Counted from the stretch's first letter, positions 24,091 to 32,865 are shown. The stretch is 57,055 nucleotides of DNA from Rhodospirillales bacterium (GCA_947445225.1 CANFCX010000003.1:1-57055); one strand, 5' to 3'. Notes: a model not told the origin generated them from the sequence alone. Made by a program: numbers and translations.

Positions 24091-25359
24091 GTGAGTCTCC
24101 TCATCGAGTTTCTTGAATTCATAGAGATCCCGCCGGGTGAACCGGTCGGCAAGCTGCTGTCCCGCGTATTGCTCAAAAGCCGCCAGATCACCAATGCCGA
24201 GGCAGGCACCTTCTTCGTGCTGCATGGCCGCGGCCCTCATCGAAAACTCGAAGCATCCAGCCTGCAAAACGATCGCGTCCGGCTCAAATCCGCGGGTTTT
24301 GTCATTCCGGTCACGACCAGCTCGATCGCCGGTTATGTCGCGACGACCGGGGAAATCGTGATCATCGACGATCTCTATGCGATTCCGGCGGGGCGATCCT
24401 ACAGCTTCAATCCCGCCTTCGATCAGGCCACGGGTTATCAAAGCCGCTCGATGTTGTGTTTCCCGCTCCAAAACTATGCGGGCGAGTTGACCGGGGTCGT
24501 TCAGCTCCTCAATCGCCGATTGCCCGGAAGCGACAAACCCGTTCCCTTCACGCGCGACCAGGTCGATCTGATCGGCCCGATCAATCACATCGTGGGCACG
24601 GCCATCGAACGCGCCCAGATGGTCGACCGCATCCACCGGCAAAATAAACGGCTTCGCGAACGTGCCCGGCTGCTTACCGAACAACGGTCGCGGATCGAAG
24701 CACTTCAGGACGAAACCGAAGACGCTTTCCAGATTTCGATCAGGCTGCTCGCGCGCGCCGCCGAACTTCATGACGAGGACACCGGCAACCACATCCTGCG
24801 GACCAATGAATACAGCTATTACCTCGCCAAGTGTTTGGATATGCCGGACGATTTCTGCGACGAAATCCGCTACAGCGCGCAGCTTCACGACGTCGGCAAG
24901 ATGAGCGTCGATGCCGCGGTTCTGAAAAAACGCGGAGGTCTATCGTCGCTGGAGCGCGACGAAATAAACCGCCACCCCTATTACGGCTACAAGATATTGT
25001 CGGCTTCGGACCGGTTGCGGATGGCCGCGGAGATCGCCTATTGCCATCATGAAAAATGGGACGGCACCGGTTATCCGCGCAAACTGAAGGGCGACGAGAT
25101 TCCGTTATCCGCGCGCATCGTCCAGATCGCCGATATCTATGACGCCCTTCGTTCCGAGCGCCCCTATAAACCCGCCTTCAGCCACGAACGATCGGTAGCG
25201 ATTATCACCAAGGGGGACGACCGCATCGACCCGCGTGCCCATTTCGATCCGCGGCTGATCGATCTGTTCGCCGCCAATCACGAAGGCATGGACCGGTTGT
25301 GGTGCGAGCTCGCCGATCCACCCGGCGCCGTCGTCGCACCCGTCGTCCAGCACGCTTAG
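24091..25359 (+). CDS. GAF + HD-GYP domain phosphodiesterase
   Basis: GAF (SIAGYVA, FDQATGYQSRSMLCFPL), ETG/DTGNH, LHDVGK, HHEKWDGTGYP, ADIYDAL, RPYK. Confidence 0.92.
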   Translation: MSLLIEFLEFIEIPPGEPVGKLLSRVLLKSRQITNAEAGTFFVLHGRGPHRKLEASSLQNDRVRLKSAGFVIPVTTSSIAGYVATTGEIVIIDDLYAIPAGRSYSFNPAFDQATGYQSRSMLCFPLQNYAGELTGVVQLLNRRLPGSDKPVPFTRDQVDLIGPINHIVGTAIERAQMVDRIHRQNKRLRERARLLTEQRSRIEALQDETEDAFQISIRLLARAAELHDEDTGNHILRTNEYSYYLAKCLDMPDDFCDEIRYSAQLHDVGKMSVDAAVLKKRGGLSSLERDEINRHPYYGYKILSASDRLRMAAEIAYCHHEKWDGTGYPRKLKGDEIPLSARIVQIADIYDALRSERPYKPAFSHERSVAIITKGDDRIDPRAHFDPRLIDLFAANHEGMDRLWCELADPPGAVVAPVVQHA

Positions 25360-25360
25360 G

Positions 25361-25834
25361 TTAGACGCTCTTTCCGTCCGCCGCCCGTCGTTCGCCCGCC
25401 CCGTCGCGCCGGCGGCGGAAGACGGCGACAATCTTCCGGCGGGCGATGCGCCAGCCCTGTCCGGTACGCTCGAAACTGTCATGGAATTCACCGACGGCAT
25501 CCAGCCCGTCGAGCGGGTAGGGCGGCGTCTGGCCCTCGATGCCGTCATGGCGGGCCACAAGGAAATAGGTCACGGCGTCGGCTTTATCCGCATCGACGAC
25601 GGCGAAGAGCGTGCCCGTGCACAGATGACGCGTGACCATGTCTGTGGACCGCGTTTCCATCTCGCGGCGGATCGCGGCATGACCGACATGGACCTTGCCG
25701 AATCGTTCAAAACAGCCATCGGTGGTGAATAGGGCCGCGAGGTCGCCATAACGGCGTTGGTCGACGAGATGGCTGAAGGCGATACACAGGCGCTCGCATT
25801 CGGCCTCGATCGCCAATCGCTCCGACGGGTTCAC
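25361..25834 (-). CDS. SnoaL/NTF2-like family protein
   Basis: LFTTDG, GHAAI, TRH, D...GWRIARR pattern. Confidence 0.8.
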   Translation of the reverse strand: MNPSERLAIEAECERLCIAFSHLVDQRRYGDLAALFTTDGCFERFGKVHVGHAAIRREMETRSTDMVTRHLCTGTLFAVVDADKADAVTYFLVARHDGIEGQTPPYPLDGLDAVGEFHDSFERTGQGWRIARRKIVAVFRRRRDGAGERRAADGKSV

Positions 25835-25981
25835 GAGACCTTACGCCCCGCGCTTTCGAAACCGGATGGATGTCACGCGATCCAATGCAGTGCGATACTG
25901 GGAACGATGTGCGCGAAACTATAGCAGCCACTCGTGGGGCGCAAATGCGGTCCTTGGGAACAGGCACCGATCGCTCGTGTG

Positions 25982-26788
25982 ATGCCGCTATTTAGCGACG
26001 TCTCGACCGTGCTGGCCGGGGTGCTGGCCATCGCCGCGGTCGTCGCCATTGGCATTTTCGCCTTCACCCGATTTCGGCGCGCGCGGCGCGATCTTTCGGC
26101 GGCGGCCGGGGACACCCTACCGCCGCGGCCGGAATTCTACGACCCCGACATGCCACCGGCCGCGCCCGGCGCCGCCGCCCAGCGGGCGCTGCGCTCCCTG
26201 TCTTATGTCGTCTTCGACACCGAAACCACCGGTCTGAGGCCGTCGCTGGGCGACGAGATTGTCGCCATCGCTGGCGTCCGGGTCATCGACGGCCGCGTCG
26301 ACGCGAGTGATACCTTCAACCGCCTGGTCAATCCGGGCCGTGGCATCCCGAAGCAATCGACGCGGTTCCATGGAATCACCGACGACATGGTTCGCCACGA
26401 ACCGCCGCTTGCCGTCGTGCTCCCGCAATTCAAGGCATTCATCGGCGATTCCGTTCTGGTCGCGCACAACGCCGCGTTCGACATGAAGTTTCTGAAAATG
26501 AAGGAGGCCGAGCTCGCAATCCGCTTCGACAATCCGGTCTTGGACACGTTGCTGATCTCGGCTTTCCTGTTCGACACATCGCAGGACCACAGCCTGGACG
26601 CCGTGCTTGGCCGGTTCGACATTCCCGCGTTGGGGCGGCACACGGCGCTGGGCGACGCACTCGCCACCGCCGCCGCTTTCATTCGCTTGATCGAAATTCT
26701 CGAAGATCGCGGCATTGGAACGTTCGAGCGGCTTCTCCGCGTCTCGAACATGGCGATGGAGGTGCGGGTTCGGCAGGCCCGCTTTTGA
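25982..26788 (+). CDS. DEDDh 3'-5' exonuclease (epsilon-like) with N-terminal TM anchor
   Basis: VFDTETTG, HGIT, AHNAAFDM, RHTALGDA; hydrophobic N-terminus followed by RFRRARR. Confidence 0.88.
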   Translation: MPLFSDVSTVLAGVLAIAAVVAIGIFAFTRFRRARRDLSAAAGDTLPPRPEFYDPDMPPAAPGAAAQRALRSLSYVVFDTETTGLRPSLGDEIVAIAGVRVIDGRVDASDTFNRLVNPGRGIPKQSTRFHGITDDMVRHEPPLAVVLPQFKAFIGDSVLVAHNAAFDMKFLKMKEAELAIRFDNPVLDTLLISAFLFDTSQDHSLDAVLGRFDIPALGRHTALGDALATAAAFIRLIEILEDRGIGTFERLLRVSNMAMEVRVRQARF

Positions 26789-26798
26789 TCGATCGGCG

Positions 26799-28250
26799 TT
26801 ACCCCCCGAGAATTTCGCCGGTCGCGTCGGCGCGGGCGCGCCGGCGGAAGGAACCGATGGATTTCAGGGCGCGGCGCAGCGCGCTTTTTTCCGGCCGCGA
26901 CATCGATTCGAGCCGAACCAGGTTGCCGACGGGCCGGCCGGCGCGGTAATCGGCCAGTTGCTGCCGCAGCAGCAGGAACCCAATATGCTCGAACGCCGCG
27001 ACCAACTCGTCATGGTCGTTGGCGTCGAGCCGGCCGCGGGCGCGGAGCGCCCCGAGGCGGCCGAGCGTGGAGGTTTGCTCCAATCCGTCGACCAGGGCCA
27101 AGAGACGCACCGATTCGACCAAGGGCACGGTGGCGTGCCGCTTGATGTCGAAGCGTCCGCCGGTTCCGGTGCGGAAGCGGCCCAACCAGTCCAGGCCCAC
27201 GCCATGGCCGGAATCGTCGCGAGCCATCGTGGCGAGGAAATTCGGATGGGACGCCGCGATCTTGGTGATGTCGGCGCGCAACGCGGCGGCAAGAGCGGCC
27301 TCGCCCCAGACCGGTTGGAAATCGAAAAAGATATCGGCATTCAGCACGGCTTCGCCGCCGCGGCGTTTGGCCCACAGCGCCACCTGATGGCGCCATTGGG
27401 ACAAGGTCTTGCGCCACAGCGGATTGGTGGCCATCACATGGCCCTGGCAATACGGGATGCCGATTGCGTCGAGGTCGGCGGTCAGCTTCGTCGCGAATTC
27501 GATGAAATAACCGTCGATCCGGTCATGGGCGTCGTCCGGGTAGTCGGCGATGATGAATCCGTTGTCCTGATCGGGGAACAGGAAACTTTCGCCGCGCCCG
27601 CCCGAGCCCATGACGATAAGGGCCGACGCCACGGGAGGCGGACCCCGGCCGCGTTCCTGCATGGCCTGGGTCGCGGTCTCGGCCAGGTGCCGGTGAATGT
27701 CGCGATTGATGTCGGTCAACAGTGCCTGGATGTCCGGGGCCGGCAGGTTGTCCTCCAACAATTCCTCGGCGATGTCGGCCTGTGCCGCCTTCACCTGCCG
27801 CAAACCGGCGACATCGCCTTCTTGGGTTAGCCGCTCGATCTGGCCCATGGTTCGCGACGCGGCCGCGGCCAGGGTCTCGGTGAGGTCAAGCATGCCGACC
27901 AACCGATGGCCATCGTCGACGACCGGCATGTGGCGCCGGTGCTGCCGGCGCATGCGGGCGATGGCGCGATAGAGATAGTCGTCGGCCTCGGCGACCGCGA
28001 CCGGCCGCGTCATGACCGCCTCCACCGCAATCTCCGGGCCATGCTGGAATGTCACGCGGCGCGCGATGTCCTGCTCGGTAAGAATGCCGACCGGCCGCCG
28101 ATCGGCATCAACGACGACCGCGCTCGATTGGCCGGACCGCGAGAGCAGGGCGACGACATCGGCGAGTTTGGTCCCTGGGCCGCAGGCGACCGGCGGGGCG
28201 CCCATGACATCGCGGACCCGTTTGCTGAAGATTTCGGTCTGCGCGGCCAT
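26799..28250 (-). CDS. CBS pair + DUF294 nucleotidyltransferase + DUF294_C protein
   Basis: CBS (GILTEQDI, RHMPVVD), MGSGGRGE...PDQDNG, CQGHVMATNPLW, IFFDF, FDIKRH. Confidence 0.9.
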   Translation of the reverse strand: MAAQTEIFSKRVRDVMGAPPVACGPGTKLADVVALLSRSGQSSAVVVDADRRPVGILTEQDIARRVTFQHGPEIAVEAVMTRPVAVAEADDYLYRAIARMRRQHRRHMPVVDDGHRLVGMLDLTETLAAAASRTMGQIERLTQEGDVAGLRQVKAAQADIAEELLEDNLPAPDIQALLTDINRDIHRHLAETATQAMQERGRGPPPVASALIVMGSGGRGESFLFPDQDNGFIIADYPDDAHDRIDGYFIEFATKLTADLDAIGIPYCQGHVMATNPLWRKTLSQWRHQVALWAKRRGGEAVLNADIFFDFQPVWGEAALAAALRADITKIAASHPNFLATMARDDSGHGVGLDWLGRFRTGTGGRFDIKRHATVPLVESVRLLALVDGLEQTSTLGRLGALRARGRLDANDHDELVAAFEHIGFLLLRQQLADYRAGRPVGNLVRLESMSRPEKSALRRALKSIGSFRRRARADATGEILGG

Positions 28251-28265
28251 GGGCGGTTCTCTAGC

Positions 28266-28934
28266 CTAGGGGCGAGGCGGATCGGAAAGGATGCCGGCGA
28301 GAGCGGCGACATCTAAACGCCGCGCCAGGCGTTCGCGCAGGGCCACCATCTGGAACGAGATCGAGTTGGCGATAATTTCTGCATCGTTGCCGCTGTAGCG
28401 CCGATGAATGGGCAAGGCTTCGAAAATTCGGCGTCCCGAGGTTTCGGCGATTCGCGCCGCCGGCAATGGCGCCGTGGAACGGATTTGATCGAGGCGCTGA
28501 GTGAGTTCACCGATCGCGGCGGTCCAGTCCGGTGGCTCCGGTGTTAACCTCGGCGTATCCTCTAGCGTGGACCGATAGAGATCGGTCAGGGCTTCGTTCC
28601 GCAAGGAACCATGGGGCCGCAACAACCCCTCCAGGATGACCACGAGATCGGCCAACACCGCGGCGAAGCCGTGGCTGCGGCTGAGCGCCAGGGCATCGAG
28701 GAAACTGCGTTCGGCATAAAGCGCGTGGCTGAAAAGGCCGACCCTGGCGCGGCAATAATCGTCGATTGTTTTTTGGGCGATATAGGCGGCCTGACTGCGC
28801 AAGAAATCAGCAAGCTCGTGCCGGGTGGCGATGGGCGGAGTCCACCACCATTGCGCCAAAACATTGAGAAGACGCGTTAATCGCCCTTCGGTTGGGTTTG
28901 GCTTCGATCTCGGTGCCGGGTTGAAGCTGGTCAT
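28266..28934 (-). CDS. Hypothetical protein, co-oriented with the DUF294 gene
   Basis: Fills the gap and ends 15 bp before the DUF294 start; plausible helical protein (AAYIAQKTIDDYCRARVG). Confidence 0.65.
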   Translation of the reverse strand: MTSFNPAPRSKPNPTEGRLTRLLNVLAQWWWTPPIATRHELADFLRSQAAYIAQKTIDDYCRARVGLFSHALYAERSFLDALALSRSHGFAAVLADLVVILEGLLRPHGSLRNEALTDLYRSTLEDTPRLTPEPPDWTAAIGELTQRLDQIRSTAPLPAARIAETSGRRIFEALPIHRRYSGNDAEIIANSISFQMVALRERLARRLDVAALAGILSDPPRP

Positions 28935-28991
28935 GGCCCATGATATTAAAAGATTCTTAAAAAATGATCCCTCCTTACCGGCGGCGGGAAT

Positions 28992-29047
28992 ATTACGGCC
29001 AACTTTCATCAAAGTGGGCCGTAATGGCGAACCAAGCGCAGGCTTGG
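28992..29047. promoter_or_regulatory. Inverted repeats / structured leader upstream of the DUF4212-SSS operon
   Basis: ATTACGGCCAACTTT CATC AAAGTGGGCCGTAAT (15-bp arms, 1 mismatch), then CCAAGC GCAG GCTTGG. Confidence 0.55.
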
Positions 29048-29086
29048 ATTCCTTCGACCCAAGGGGGGGACGAACAGGAGGCGCCC

Positions 29087-29356
29087 ATGCAGGAATCAAC
29101 GCTCTCACGCGAGAAGATGGACAATTATTGGCGGAAAACGTCCCGCTTGATGTGGACTATCCTAGCCTTGTGGTTTATCGCCAGTTTCGTCGTTCATTTC
29201 TTCGCGGTCCCGCTTAACGGGATCAAGATCCTCGGGTTCCCGCTCGGCTTCTACTTCGCCGCGCAGGGGTCGCTGATCGCGTTTGTCGTTCTGTGTTTCT
29301 GGAACGCCTACGCACAGAACAAGATCGATGAAGAATTCGGCGTTGCCGAGGACTGA
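29087..29356 (+). CDS. DUF4212 small membrane subunit of SSS transporter
   Basis: YWRKT, GFPLGFYFAAQGS, DEEFGV; AGGAGG SD. Confidence 0.9.
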   Translation: MQESTLSREKMDNYWRKTSRLMWTILALWFIASFVVHFFAVPLNGIKILGFPLGFYFAAQGSLIAFVVLCFWNAYAQNKIDEEFGVAED

Positions 29357-29367
29357 GGGGGAAAATC

Positions 29368-31188
29368 ATGGCCTACGACATCAGCACCAAGACCGGATTT
29401 GTCGCCAATCTCGGTAAGATTTATGGCGGTTATGCCGGCGCGTTTCTCGGATTTGTCGTCGTACTCGCTATCCTCGAGCAGATGGGCGTGCCCAACGCCG
29501 TCATCGGCTATTGCTTCGTGTTCCTGACCATTGGCGTCTATGCCTATATCGGTATCCTTTCGCGCACGATGGAGCTGTCGGAATATTACGTGGCCGGCCG
29601 CGTCGTCCCCGCTTTTTACAACGGCATGGCCACCGGCGCCGACTGGATGAGCGCGGCGTCCTTCATTTCCATGGCCGGCGGCCTCTATCTCGCCGGCTTC
29701 GCCAATCTCGGCTACGTCCTGGGGTGGACGGGCGGTTACGTGCTGGTGGCGATCCTGCTGGCGCCCTATCTGCGCAAATTCGGTCAGTTCACCGTGCCCG
29801 ATTTCCTGGGGACACGGTACGAAGGAAACGGCGCCCGTGTCTGCGGGGTGATTGTGCTTTTCGCCGCGTCCTTCACCTACATCGTGGCCCAGTGTTACGG
29901 CATCGGCATCATCACCTCGCGTTTCATCGGCATCAGTTTTGAACTTGCCATCTTTGTCGGGCTCGCCGGCATCCTGGTGTGTTCGATGCTGGGCGGCATG
30001 CGCGCGGTGACCTGGACTCAGGTGGCGCAATACATCGTGTTGATCGTTGCCTATCTGGTCCCGGTTATCTGGCTGTCGACCAAACTGTACGGCATCCCGA
30101 TTCCGGAACTGACCTATGGCATGGCGTTGGAAGAGATCGCTTCGCTCGAACAGAAGCTCGGCATTCTCAAGCCCCACGCCGCGCCCTATGTCGACGCGGC
30201 GGGCAAGTTCAGCTGGGTCGAATTCAACAATTTCTGGGCGCTGGTGTTGTGCCTCATGGTTGGCACCGCATCGCTTCCGCACATCCTGATGCGTTATTTC
30301 ACCACGCCCAATGTGCGTCAGGCGCGTGAATCCGTGGGCTGGAGCATCTTCTTCATCTTCCTGCTTTATTTCACGGCTCCGGCCTATGCCGCCTTCGCCA
30401 AGCTTGAGGTTTATTCCCACGTCATCGGACAACCGATCGCGCAGCTACCGATCTGGGTCCAAAACTGGTCTCAAGTCGGCGGGTTGCTCACGATCCGCGA
30501 CGCCAACAACGACGGCATCCTTCAACTCGCCGAATTCATCATCAACCAGGACATCATCGTTCTGTCGATGCCGGAAATCGCCGGCTTGCCCTATGTGATC
30601 TCGGGCTTGGTGGCGGCGGGTGGTCTCGCGGCGGCGTTATCCACCGCGGACGGACTTCTGCTCGCCATCGCCAACGCGCTTAGCCACGACATCTATTACA
30701 AAATGCTCGATCCGAAGGCGAGCACGACTCGGCGCCTGACCGTCGCCCGCGTTCTGCTGGTCGGCGTGGCCCTGGTGGCCGCGGCGGTGGCGGGAACGCG
30801 TCCCGACGGCATCATCCAGATGGTGGCCTGGGCGTTTTCCCTAGCCGCGGCCGGACTCTTCGCTCCGCTGGTGCTGGGGATCTGGTGGAAGCGAACAACC
30901 GCGGCCGGCGCCGTTGCCGGCATGATCAGCGGCTTTTCGGTGTGTCTCTTCTATCTGGTGATGACGCGGTATTTCCCGGAAACGTTCCAGGCTTGGTTCG
31001 GCACCAATCTGTGGTGGGGAATCCGTAACATCTCCAGCGCGCTGTTCGGCCTGCCGGTGGCCTTCGGCGTGACCTGGGCTGTCAGCATGTTGACGACGCC
31101 ACCGTCCAAAGAGATGCAGGATTTCGTCGATTCGATCCGCACGCCCCGGGGCGACGTGAAGTGGGCGATCGCCGGCGTCCGCGAATAA
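29368..31188 (+). CDS. Sodium:solute symporter, VC_2705/ActP-like subfamily
   Basis: YYVAGR, NGMATGADWMSAASFIS, APYLRKFGQFTVPDF, TWTQVAQY, LPHILMRYFT, AAALSTADGLL. Confidence 0.93.
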   Translation: MAYDISTKTGFVANLGKIYGGYAGAFLGFVVVLAILEQMGVPNAVIGYCFVFLTIGVYAYIGILSRTMELSEYYVAGRVVPAFYNGMATGADWMSAASFISMAGGLYLAGFANLGYVLGWTGGYVLVAILLAPYLRKFGQFTVPDFLGTRYEGNGARVCGVIVLFAASFTYIVAQCYGIGIITSRFIGISFELAIFVGLAGILVCSMLGGMRAVTWTQVAQYIVLIVAYLVPVIWLSTKLYGIPIPELTYGMALEEIASLEQKLGILKPHAAPYVDAAGKFSWVEFNNFWALVLCLMVGTASLPHILMRYFTTPNVRQARESVGWSIFFIFLLYFTAPAYAAFAKLEVYSHVIGQPIAQLPIWVQNWSQVGGLLTIRDANNDGILQLAEFIINQDIIVLSMPEIAGLPYVISGLVAAGGLAAALSTADGLLLAIANALSHDIYYKMLDPKASTTRRLTVARVLLVGVALVAAAVAGTRPDGIIQMVAWAFSLAAAGLFAPLVLGIWWKRTTAAGAVAGMISGFSVCLFYLVMTRYFPETFQAWFGTNLWWGIRNISSALFGLPVAFGVTWAVSMLTTPPSKEMQDFVDSIRTPRGDVKWAIAGVRE

Positions 31189-31206
31189 CAAACTTTCTAT
31201 AGAATG

Positions 31207-31240
31207 GGGCAGGGCACGGTCACGGGCCCTGCCCTTTTTC
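31207..31240 (+). terminator. Rho-independent terminator after SSS gene
   Basis: GGGCAGGGC ... GCCCTGCCC followed by TTTTT. Confidence 0.7.
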
Positions 31241-31259
31241 TTAGCGAGATTTCAAGCCG

Positions 31260-31580
31260 ATGGCGGGACAGGATATTTGGTGGAGTTATTGGTATTTCCA
31301 CCTGCCCAATTACGCGCTTTCGGTGTTGTTCTACACGATGTTCGGGCGGTTCGCCCTCGGCCTCTTGCTTCCCCCGGATAGCCCGAATTACGTCTATCGC
31401 TGGTTCCGCCGGCTGACCGATTGGATCGTCGCGCCGGTTGCCTTTGTCACGCCGCGCGCCCTCCATGGCCCGCTCCTGGCTCCGGTCGCGGCCTTTTGGA
31501 TCATGGTCGCGCGGGTCACGTTATTCGCCGTGTTGTACGCCGCGGAGCTTTTGCCGCGGGCGGCGCCGGGGACTTCCTGA
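31260..31580 (+). CDS. Small membrane protein (YggT-like)
   Basis: Hydrophobic; NYVYRWFRRLTD...TP pattern resembles YggT. Confidence 0.65.
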   Translation: MAGQDIWWSYWYFHLPNYALSVLFYTMFGRFALGLLLPPDSPNYVYRWFRRLTDWIVAPVAFVTPRALHGPLLAPVAAFWIMVARVTLFAVLYAAELLPRAAPGTS

Positions 31581-31586
31581 CGGCCC

Positions 31587-31913
31587 ATGGGCGACCGCCG
31601 CAACCTGCTGATGATCGTGGTCGGATTGTGCGCCGCCAATGGCGTGTTTTCGCCCTATGTCGCCATCGCGCTTCAGATCGCGCCGGTTTTGATGCCCGAG
31701 GTGTTCCCGCGCACCGTGGGCTGGGCTTTGTTCTTCAGTTCGGTCGCGGTGTCGACGGCGACCTTGTTGCTCAGCGGGGTGCCGGCGGCGCTCTACGAAA
31801 GGCTGACGCGGAATGAAGAGGGCACGGCGTCGATGTGGATTTGGATGGCGGGCGCCGCCTTCCTTTCACTTCCGGCCCTGGTCAATCTCGACCGGATCGT
31901 CCGCGCCGATTGA
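31587..31913 (+). CDS. Hypothetical membrane protein
   Basis: 3 hydrophobic segments, GVPAALYER; 6 bp after the previous gene. Confidence 0.65.
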   Translation: MGDRRNLLMIVVGLCAANGVFSPYVAIALQIAPVLMPEVFPRTVGWALFFSSVAVSTATLLLSGVPAALYERLTRNEEGTASMWIWMAGAAFLSLPALVNLDRIVRAD

Positions 31914-31988
31914 CCCCCGATTGCCGCGCCAAACGCGCTTCCCATTCTGGTATCATCCGACGGGCGCGCATTGGATTTTCGTTATCCC

Positions 31989-32360
31989 ATGGATCGCATT
32001 CGCTACTTCGCCGACCAATCGATACGCCGCGCTTGCGGCTTTGGCTTTCTGGCGCTCGCCACCGGCATGGTCGGCCTTTATTGGGACATCGCCAGCGCCC
32101 TGAAACTTGGCGCGACCGGGGCCACGTTCATGGCGGCGCTATTGGTGTGGAAAGCGTTCGAGGCGCCACGGCGCAATTATCGGCGCACCGAAGTCTTTCT
32201 GTTGATGGACAAGAAACACGATTTTCCGGAAGCCCGCGCTCAGCAGATTTTCGGTAACACCCTGCGGGATCGTTACCTTTGGCACGCCACGCTCATCGCC
32301 GGATTGGCGGCTGTCTTGTGGTTGTTTGCATTTGTCGTACAGATCGTCGGAGCGGATTAG
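31989..32360 (+). CDS. Hypothetical membrane protein
   Basis: 3 hydrophobic segments, SIRRACGF, YRRTEV. Confidence 0.65.
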   Translation: MDRIRYFADQSIRRACGFGFLALATGMVGLYWDIASALKLGATGATFMAALLVWKAFEAPRRNYRRTEVFLLMDKKHDFPEARAQQIFGNTLRDRYLWHATLIAGLAAVLWLFAFVVQIVGAD

Positions 32361-32386
32361 GCCGCCGCCACTTGGCCGCGCGACAA

Positions 32387-32686
32387 TCAGAAGACGGCGG
32401 CGAAACTACCGTCCAGCCGTTTCTCGGCGATGCATTGATAAAGGCCGCGCTTCTCGCCCATTTCGTACCGGATCGAGACGCGGAACTGATCGTCGCCGGT
32501 CGAAATCGCGACCAAGGATTTCTCGAATGGCTCGAAATTGGCCGCGGCGAGTTCGGATCCCGGCTTTTTGGCGTTGGCGAGGCAAATATCGTAGGCCGCT
32601 CGATTGAACTTTTCGCTCTGACCGCAGCCGGCGACCAAGAGCGCCGCCGAAAGGATCGCTGCGAGCCGGGCGGTGAACACGGGCAT
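32387..32686 (-). CDS. Hypothetical lipoprotein
   Basis: Lipobox LVAG-C after a hydrophobic signal peptide; two further Cys. Confidence 0.65.
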   Translation of the reverse strand: MPVFTARLAAILSAALLVAGCGQSEKFNRAAYDICLANAKKPGSELAAANFEPFEKSLVAISTGDDQFRVSIRYEMGEKRGLYQCIAEKRLDGSFAAVF

Positions 32687-32865
32687 GGGTATCATCCTCA
32701 AGCCTGAGGCTGCTTAAGCGCGGTCGTGTGAATATCGAGCGTGTCCCACTGGGTCAAGTCCAATGCGGCGCCTTCGCGCGCGCCGATTTCACCGCTTCGG
32801 AAAACTTGCACTTCGGTTGTTGATTTCCTATATATTACATGACTAATTCGTAGAATGGGACAATC

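Follow-up and report, generated by a model that had tools for sequence, protein, structure and literature searches.

A DUF4212/VC_2705-type symporter module linked to a DUF294 nucleotidyltransferase–exonuclease pair in a Rhodospirillales gene cassette

A DUF294 nucleotidyltransferase (NTase) and a DEDDh exonuclease are encoded together in Pseudomonas (PP_0354/PP_0353 in P. putida/alloputida KT2440, Pflu5625 in P. fluorescens SBW25, and PA3233/PA3232 in P. aeruginosa). Here we describe a cassette at positions 25982–32701 of a 57,055-nucleotide stretch of DNA from a Rhodospirillales bacterium (GCA_947445225.1, CANFCX010000003.1:1-57055; the whole stretch is called the window below), in which the same two enzyme families lie beside a two-subunit sodium/solute symporter (SSS) and four orphan proteins, orphA, s1, s2, and s3. 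The pairing of the two enzymes is already in print as a member of the CrbS/R (MxtR/ErdR) regulon, and so is the outline of a writer–eraser scheme; protein nucleotidylation by the DUF294 NTase has been proposed (PMC5715377, 10.64898/2026.09.07.749794). In Pseudomonas, the DUF294 genes rank among those with the strongest dependence on the two-component system that senses acetate (10.64898/2026.09.07.749794). The pp_0354 and pp_0353 genes form an ErdR-dependent operon that showed no acetate defect, pp_0353 being of importance on pyruvate (Henriquez et al. 2022, PMC9927547), and mutants of both genes grow worse on propionate, with the function left open (10.64898/2026.09.07.749794). PA3232–PA3235 are induced on propionate (PMC9765439). 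On the transporter side, DUF4212 is the required small subunit of lactate/D-alanine symporters and is cofit with a nearby COG2905 (RNase T domain) gene, for which the same work speculates a requirement in symporter expression (Price et al., preprint 10.1101/072470). A preliminary description of the window had noted that DUF294 proteins are not known to have an established biochemical function, and a preprint of September 2026 (10.64898/2026.09.07.749794) still says the same.

The cassette holds nine genes: the exonuclease, the NTase, orphA, DUF4212, SSS, s1, s2, s3, and a lipoprotein-like gene. Every feature of the preliminary description lies where it had been placed, and all nine genes prove real, with synteny in relatives. 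The features are as follows.

25982–26788, plus strand: DEDDh exonuclease, short form (DnaQ-like, 3'-5'); RNase_T match over profile positions 1–164 of 164; alternative GTG start at 25934
26544–27510: stretch of 967 bp deleted in two genomes of the same genus (G001 and G002), from blastn break points
26799–28250, minus strand: CBS-CBS-DUF294-DUF294_C NTase, from Pfam domains; GlnE/DrrA-like fold in the structure model
28266–28934, minus strand: orphA, all-helical, about 205–222 residues, first gene of the NTase transcription unit, without a Pfam or NCBIfam family
28935–29086: divergent spacer separating orphA from DUF4212; promoters are presumed here from position
29087–29356, plus strand: DUF4212 (TIGR03647), symporter small subunit; 94.8 bits (cut-off 26.05)
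29368–31188, plus strand: VC_2705-family SSS (TIGR03648), large subunit of a monocarboxylate-type sodium/solute symporter; 745.1 bits (cut-off 320.75)
31260–31580, plus strand: s1, two-helix small membrane protein, weakly YGGT-like (PF02325, below the gathering score)
31587–31913, plus strand: s2, small membrane protein without a family; adjoins s1 in 79 of 80 loci anchored on s1 (see below)
31971–32360, plus strand: s3, small membrane protein without a family; conserved cytoplasmic loop R-x-Y-R-x-T-E ... P-E-x-R-A-Q in the alignment
32387–32701, minus strand: small lipoprotein-like gene; weak LptM signal-peptide match of 20 bits, below the cut-off

The exonuclease and NTase genes are convergent, with stop codons 10 bp apart. 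The end of orphA and the start of the NTase gene are separated by 15 bp on the same strand, and orphA is divergent from DUF4212-SSS-s1-s2-s3. DUF4212 lies directly upstream of SSS at a spacing of 11 bp, as in the two-subunit VC_2705 type. The window genome (G000; 2.6 Mb in 157 contigs, 97.5% complete) carries DUF294 and DUF4212 as single-copy genes.

Comparison with relatives divides the cassette into two linked modules: orphA together with DUF4212-SSS-s1-s2-s3, and the NTase–exonuclease pair. Twenty DUF294 loci from relatives were compared with the window; 11 have all eight genes in the same relative order, and four more, cut by contig ends, are collinear as far as they go. A second set was anchored on s1 and comprised 80 loci of named public genomes, many of them cut by contig ends, which are labelled Alphaproteobacteria (Rhodospirillales, Stella, Dongiaceae, Reyranellaceae, Acetobacteraceae, Hyphomicrobiales, and others) and Burkholderiales/Betaproteobacteria. 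In these 80 loci, s2 was present in 79, SSS in 76, orphA in 68, and DUF4212 in 63; the NTase was present in 47, s3 in 43, and the exonuclease in 41. When the count is restricted to the 33 loci that span 17 kb or more, SSS is present in all 33 and orphA in 32, both enzymes are present in 27, and one has the NTase only. The gene order varies as well. In the inspected loci labelled Beta-/Gammaproteobacteria or Burkholderiales, orphA is encoded on the other strand, either between SSS and s1 or immediately behind s2, and in three inspected alphaproteobacterial s1-anchored loci it is divergent from DUF4212; several other families of the window's class have orphA-exonuclease-NTase facing DUF4212-SSS-s1-(s2)-s3. 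The gene content and gene orders of these loci indicate that orphA and s1–s3 travel with the transporter and that the enzyme pair is a frequent but separable companion. The preliminary description had grouped the four orphans with the enzymes in one nucleotidylation system; because they persist where the enzyme pair is missing or deleted, we assign them to the transporter module instead. As a separate observation, s3 was undetected in six loci with Burkholderiales or Beta-/Gammaproteobacteria labels (L150, L164, L169, L175, L160, and L182), in which orphA lies between SSS and s1, divergent from s1-s2.

The separability of the two modules is also seen in a natural deletion. In blastn, G001 and G002 (same genus as the window genome; loci L127 and L128) lack window positions 26544–27510 through one shared 967-bp deletion, which takes out the C-terminus of the exonuclease with H220 and D225 and all of the NTase beyond about residue 247. 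What remains of the enzyme genes has ratios of nonsynonymous to synonymous substitution rates (dN/dS) of 0.37–0.42, and the NTase remnant contains an in-frame stop. The transporter genes of the two genomes retain 94–98% protein identity to the window and are under strong purifying selection (dN/dS 0.06 for SSS and 0.09–0.11 for DUF4212), and orphA and s1–s3 are also under purifying selection (0.22 for orphA, 0.05 for s1, 0.09 for s2, and 0.05–0.06 for s3). The single deletion and the purifying selection on the transporter genes led us to conclude that the enzyme pair is dispensable for keeping the transporter in that lineage. This clean natural double knock-out of the pair in two sister genomes is new compared with the literature. 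In blastn, the pieces on either side of the deletion share about 18 bases at the break points, a possible microhomology.

In the NTase, the DUF294 domain (PF03445, 130.6 bits; cut-off 21) is followed by DUF294_C (PF10335, 124.1 bits; cut-off 22.5), and an N-terminal CBS pair is matched in two stretches (81.3 bits). The Pfam scan found no cNMP_binding domain in this 483-residue protein, a domain that longer DUF294 homologues carry (10.64898/2026.09.07.749794). As the preliminary description had noticed, an intact polymerase-beta-type NTase motif lies behind the CBS pair: the sequence GSGGRGESFLFPDQD corresponds to G-x11-D-x-D (G215-x11-D227-Q-D229), and G215, S216, R219, D227, and D229 are invariant across 107 NTase sequences. 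The AlphaFold2 (AF2) model of the NTase has a predicted local distance difference test (pLDDT) score of 93.1. Its VIA-align matches outside the CBS domains are 1v4a (the GlnE N-terminal domain; Z 26.4, 323 aligned residues), 6yx5_B (DrrA; Z 25.4, 295 residues), and 3k7d_B (the GlnE adenylylation domain; Z 25.1, 318 residues), at sequence identities of 13–15%, and Foldseek returns the same three entries with E values of 7e-8 to 1e-6. The full-length model was used, and the other rows among the best 50 VIA-align matches are CBS proteins, which may crowd out weaker NTase matches; likewise, when a profile built from the 107 NTases was compared with PDB sequences, the best 60 of 173 matches were all CBS-domain proteins. 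GlnE and DrrA as the sole non-CBS entries among these structural matches agree with the kinship to GlnD/GlnE that had been stated for DUF294 proteins, and DUF294_C has been grouped with the C-terminal domains of GlnD/GlnE (PMC3710099). The modelled GlnE/DrrA-type fold points to protein modification: because all three fold matches add AMP to, or remove AMP from, protein side chains, a protein substrate is favoured, though not proven.

The exonuclease matches the RNase_T profile from end to end (E 8.8e-35). It has D79 and E81 of the Exo I motif, D167 of Exo II, and H220 and D225 of Exo III, each invariant in 18 of 18 family rows, so the convergent DEDDh exonuclease with all catalytic motifs had been described correctly. 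One N-terminal hydrophobic helix (residues 10–28) is followed by a linker and then the exonuclease domain. The window protein aligns only to residues 434–670 of a 670-residue relative (62% identity), which itself has an N-terminal hydrophobic helix. Exonucleases of the window type, defined here by at least 150 bits on the hidden Markov model (HMM) of the family, are usually about 700 or about 465 residues long and carry one or two hydrophobic helices at the N-terminus; a simple hydropathy rule finds at least one such helix ahead of the exonuclease domain in 48 of 60. In at least four loci, the exonuclease and the NTase are fused: Pfam places an exonuclease, a CBS pair, DUF294, and DUF294_C in one reading frame in L087 (718 residues) and L123 (712 residues), and L019 and L101 are counted from the shared frame only. 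In L005 (10874–16021) and L099 (11159–16230), a protein with membrane helices and about 710 residues ends in the exonuclease domain, and its gene is followed by one for a histidine kinase of 911–948 residues. Of these two long exonucleases, only the 710-residue L005 copy gave a match to PAS domains. The stretch equivalent to the kinase in window-family loci L006, L008, L012, L013, and L015 has a weak SSS-like tblastn match and is reminiscent of CrbS. In the 97.5% complete window genome, the 948-residue kinase of L005 matched the kinase core only (query 677–946, 28–40% identity), with its N-terminal 676 residues unmatched, and a CrbS-type SSS-domain histidine kinase was not found there. Since the short exonuclease matches only the C-terminus of the long form and the N-terminal part of the kinase is unmatched, we conclude that the 2.6-Mb genome carries a stripped-down version of the system. 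The short single-helix exonuclease, the usual membrane anchoring of this exonuclease type, and the exonuclease–NTase fusions are new compared with the literature.

The two enzymes were then followed across the phylum in a sample of 251 genomes, in which DUF294 at E≤1e-15 gave 108 matches. Neighbours were counted in 104 loci with 107 DUF294 genes outside the window; the genomes are mutually related, and the counts are descriptive, with no test attached. The recurrence of DUF294 beside DEDDh exonucleases and ActP-/VC_2705-like symporters, stated in the preliminary description together with a proposal for a neighbourhood survey, was borne out: an exonuclease lies within 4 kb of 98 of the 107 DUF294 genes and an SSS gene within 4 kb of 59, in addition to the 27 of 33 long s1-anchored loci. 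DUF4212 lies within 6.5 kb of 33 of the 107, and seven have none of the three neighbours. Conversely, 36 of 63 DUF4212 genes are within 12 kb of a DUF294 gene. Both DUF4212 and DUF294 occur in 44 genomes, DUF4212 only in 18, DUF294 only in 31, and neither in 158. BCCT transporters stand beside DUF294 in L043, L062, and nine further loci, usually with the exonuclease, and this recurrence shows that the pair is not tied to SSS transporters alone. Outside the window's genus, the HMMs of orphA and s1–s3 matched only one of the 104 loci (L123, with s1 and s2), and the orphA/s1–s3 extension is therefore lineage-restricted. A receptor-type variant was also observed: L057 (8186–10750) and L068 (9249–11807) encode DUF294 NTases of about 855 residues with sCache_2 and PAS domains, and an exonuclease is absent within 4 kb.

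The four orphans are real genes, judging from their GC content at third codon positions (0.69–0.84), their synteny in relatives, and their dN/dS; each gene of the cassette shows coding-like codon-position GC. No Pfam or NCBIfam family was matched by orphA, s1, s2, or s3 at E≤0.01. With a profile of orphA, 821 of 1.84 billion cluster representatives were matched at E≤0.001, and nearly all of them have 200–240 residues. The AF2 model of orphA (pLDDT 89.7, predicted template modelling (TM) score 0.84) has eight helices. Foldseek against the PDB gave nothing at E≤0.001 (best E 0.4, TM ≤0.28), the best VIA-align matches (LptG, Z 6.7; Cbp3 homologue 6rwt, Z 6.3) are within the stated noise for helical models, and in the ESM Atlas all matching clusters were 'hypothetical protein' entries of Pseudomonadota, with no fold above TM 0.5 beyond its own family. 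Longer fused forms of orphA were not found at E≤1e-5 in the homologue search, which is weak evidence. A metagenomic protein of 419 residues (P0108) joins orphA directly to an RNase_T exonuclease domain without a membrane helix; it is not used as support, since its cluster has no other member, its sole source is a 2,097-bp contig, and it may be an assembly or stop-loss artefact. The window copy of s1 scores 16.4 bits against YGGT (PF02325; cut-off 27), and 11 of 13 s1 members match this family at E≤1 (best 2.5e-4). At the same threshold, no Pfam family was common to more than four of 12 members of s2 or more than two of 14 members of s3. The s3 gene is present in 15 of 201 genomes of the class. 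The literature search found no paper naming orphA or s1–s3, with the limit that unnamed proteins could not be targeted directly; the transporter-side set of orphA and s1–s3 and its range are new in comparison.

The genes flanking the cassette are unrelated (GAF-HD_5, SnoaL-like, and CoaBC): beside the exonuclease lie a GAF-HD_5 (HD-GYP-like) gene at 24091–25359 (plus strand) and a SnoaL-like gene at 25361–25834 (minus strand). GAF-HD-like matches occur within 10 kb of DUF294 in six other loci of the phylum sample (L040, L067, L089, L102, L103, and L118). The lipoprotein-like gene at 32387–32701 also adjoins s3 in L009, L011, L013, and L018. A GC-rich hairpin with a T-run at 26764–26782 (plus strand) overlaps the exonuclease stop codon at the 10-bp convergent gap and may be a shared terminator. 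A scan of 25700–32800 for sigma-70-like promoters gave one site, with 1.7 expected, and none in the divergent region. This intergenic region measures about 150 bp in the window compared with 250–350 bp in relatives, for which alignment is uninformative.

We propose that the first module, DUF4212 with the VC_2705-type SSS, would be a sodium-coupled monocarboxylate importer with lineage-specific accessory proteins, s1–s3 in the membrane and orphA as a soluble helical protein, and that the second would be a two-enzyme signalling pair tuning carboxylate uptake or assimilation. The CBS-DUF294 NTase, controlled by its CBS pair, would most likely transfer a nucleoside monophosphate from a nucleoside triphosphate to a side-chain hydroxyl in a protein, and the membrane-tethered DEDDh enzyme would hydrolyse that phosphodiester again. 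The likeliest target here would be the transporter complex on its cytoplasmic side (SSS, DUF4212, or orphA). Such a writer–eraser scheme is plausible as a hypothesis and is supported by the fold, the fusions, and the linkage. Also in its favour are the hydrophobic helices of 48 of 60 exonucleases and of the window copy, the cofitness of DUF4212 genes with the COG2905/RNase T gene (10.1101/072470), and the growth defects seen on pyruvate and propionate for the PP_0353/PP_0354 operon (PMC9927547, 10.64898/2026.09.07.749794). The full combination, in which the transporter module is joined by a protein-nucleotidylylating NTase and a reversing exonuclease that act on the transporter complex, is our tentative preference and has a less than even chance of being right. 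The comparisons show the gene content and its conservation, the linkage and fusion of the enzymes, their intact catalytic motifs, the modelled GlnE/DrrA-like fold, and the dispensability of the pair; a substrate that is protein and not nucleic acid, a reversing role for the exonuclease, the choice of target, and the ligand of the CBS domains are inferred.

The preliminary description had proposed predicting complexes of the NTase, the exonuclease, SSS, and DUF4212; the prediction was run for SSS, DUF4212, and orphA. In this three-chain prediction, orphA docked on SSS/DUF4212 with an ipSAE of 0.56 compared with 0.00 for the best control, the runs agreeing in at least 78% of contacts and the partner, orphA, having a pLDDT of at least 71. 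The mark applied is reached by 58 of 80 solved complexes and two of 110 mismatched pairs, and at ≤0.60 by seven of those 80 and by both mismatches. The prediction thus gives weak support to docking of orphA on SSS/DUF4212, which fits the gene order and is not proof. A more specific version of the proposal, in which DUF294 and DEDDh enzymes form a reversible nucleotidylylation switch on a secondary transporter complex with orphA as the docking cytoplasmic adaptor, seems rather unlikely to us.

Several points weigh against our proposal. No DUF294 enzyme is known to nucleotidylylate a protein, and we know of no DEDDh enzyme that removes a protein-linked nucleotide. The docking is a weak pass only, and it used custom alignments and three chains, unlike its calibration. 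No Ser, Thr, Tyr, or His is invariant in 15 sequences of orphA, which was accordingly rejected as a nucleotidylylated transducer. Neither enzyme is present in five of the 33 long s1-anchored loci, and two genomes of the same genus have lost both enzymes yet keep the transporter genes under selection. Forty of the 107 DUF294–exonuclease pairs have no SSS gene within 4 kb. Other recurrent neighbours of DUF294 are Acs (21 loci), DUF485/YjcH (12), and BCCT (11). With these links to Acs, ActP/DUF485, and BCCT genes in other loci, the symporter is one of several candidate targets, and Acs or another regulon member could be acted on instead. In the Pseudomonas studies, deletion mutants of the pair have mild or no phenotypes (PMC5715377, PMC9927547, 10.64898/2026.09.07.749794). 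Taken together, the recurrence of DUF294 with the exonuclease and the symporter and the GlnE-like fold uphold one part of the interpretation in the preliminary description, whereas its inclusion of the orphans with the enzymes is not upheld and the pair proved dispensable in two sister genomes.

The same chemistry might act on another target, namely Acs or a CrbS/R-type acetate-sensing component, so that adjacency to the symporter would reflect a shared regulon only. In Pseudomonas, the pair is a direct CrbR/ErdR target and is unlinked to actP (PMC5715377, PMC9927547, 10.64898/2026.09.07.749794). The 21 loci with Acs beside the pair, the histidine kinase gene after the exonuclease in L005 and L099, the weak SSS-like match in the five window-family loci, and the 40 pairs lacking a nearby SSS gene are in line with this. 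However, acs is absent from the cassette, the N-terminal 676 residues of the kinase are unmatched in the window genome although the pair is intact beside the symporter, and the pair is adjacent in 27 of the 33 long loci of the cassette type. We consider a target outside the transporter complex improbable here.

Control at the RNA level appears about equally unlikely: untemplated nucleotides added by the NTase to the 3' terminus of the symporter mRNA, the acs mRNA, or a small RNA would be trimmed off by the exonuclease, which would set transcript stability and with it the expression of uptake genes. The pol-beta-fold NTases include poly(A)- and CCA-adding enzymes, and the partner enzyme is a genuine 3'-5' exonuclease of the DnaQ/RNase T type with its five catalytic residues intact, which in sequence is matched best by the proofreading domains of PolC and epsilon. 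Degradation of mRNA has been raised as a possibility by Henriquez et al. (PMC9927547). On the other hand, the best 50 structural matches of the NTase list no RNA-tailing NTase, only GlnE and DrrA appearing outside the CBS proteins that fill most rows, and its C-terminal domain is a GlnD/GlnE-type substrate-binding domain (PMC3710099). The membrane tethering of 48 of 60 exonucleases would also be odd for an mRNA-decay enzyme.

Least probable, in our view, is a small nucleotide signal, that is, a linear or cyclic oligonucleotide or a nucleotide–metabolite conjugate made by the NTase, degraded by the exonuclease, and sensed by a receptor that tunes uptake. The models for it are the GGDEF/EAL and DacA/GdpP pairs; DEDDh enzymes such as Orn degrade dinucleotides, and the long exonuclease form (two membrane helices, PAS, and a hydrolase domain) may be likened to the layout of GdpP. 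Sensor domains occur on both enzymes (CBS on the NTase here, Cache-PAS in L057/L068, and PAS on the exonuclease of L005), and fusion of synthase and hydrolase in one protein is typical of second-messenger enzymes, but the fold and motif match protein AMPylases rather than cGAS/DncV-type enzymes, DUF294_C belongs with the GlnE-type domains, which bind protein substrates (PMC3710099), and a candidate receptor is not evident.

If nucleotidylylation of the transporter complex by the pair is real, it would be the first case in which AMPylation or UMPylation of a transporter's own subunits gates it and would make the DEDDh 'exonuclease' the first of its kind to act as a protein de-nucleotidylase, providing a new way to couple nutrient uptake to the energy state. 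About 30% of the genomes sampled from the phylum (75 of 251) encode a DUF294 enzyme. The problem has been narrowed in several respects: the predicted fold directs attention to GlnE/DrrA-type protein modification; the exonuclease is a regular partner, sometimes fused and usually membrane-bound; a natural double knock-out exists; and an unnamed helical family with 821 cluster representatives and three small membrane proteins stand on the transporter side.

Among described systems, GlnE and Legionella DrrA/SidM share with the window NTase the predicted fold of an NTase and a helical substrate-binding domain (Z 25–26 over 295–323 residues) and the G-x11-D-x-D motif; the window enzyme differs from them in its CBS sensor domain and in its low sequence identity of 13–15%. 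Reversal is carried out by a second NTase-like domain in GlnE and by SidD in the DrrA system, not by a DEDDh enzyme. The uridylylation-controlled plugging of a transporter by GlnD-GlnK-AmtB may serve as a working analogy only, having an NTase, a reversal, and a soluble protein beside a transporter; orphA is unlike GlnK in being an unrelated helical protein without a conserved hydroxyl, and orphA and the transporter persist without the NTase. The symporters Sama_1522/1523 of Shewanella and Psest_0346/0347 of P. stutzeri consist of DUF4212 and SSS subunits as in the window and have the cofit neighbours Sama_1525 and Psest_0349 (10.1101/072470). They transport lactate and D-alanine (10.1101/072470). 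The closest described counterparts of the enzyme pair are those of Pseudomonas, which are likewise tied to uptake and assimilation genes for acetate, pyruvate, and propionate in the papers cited above. A CrbS-type kinase as in the CrbS/R regulon was not found in the window genome. In contrast to the Pseudomonas operon, the window genes are convergent, the NTase is without a cNMP-binding domain, and the exonuclease is predicted to be membrane-tethered; the symporter is of the DUF4212/VC_2705 type instead of ActP/YjcH, and the cassette adds four genes, orphA and s1–s3.

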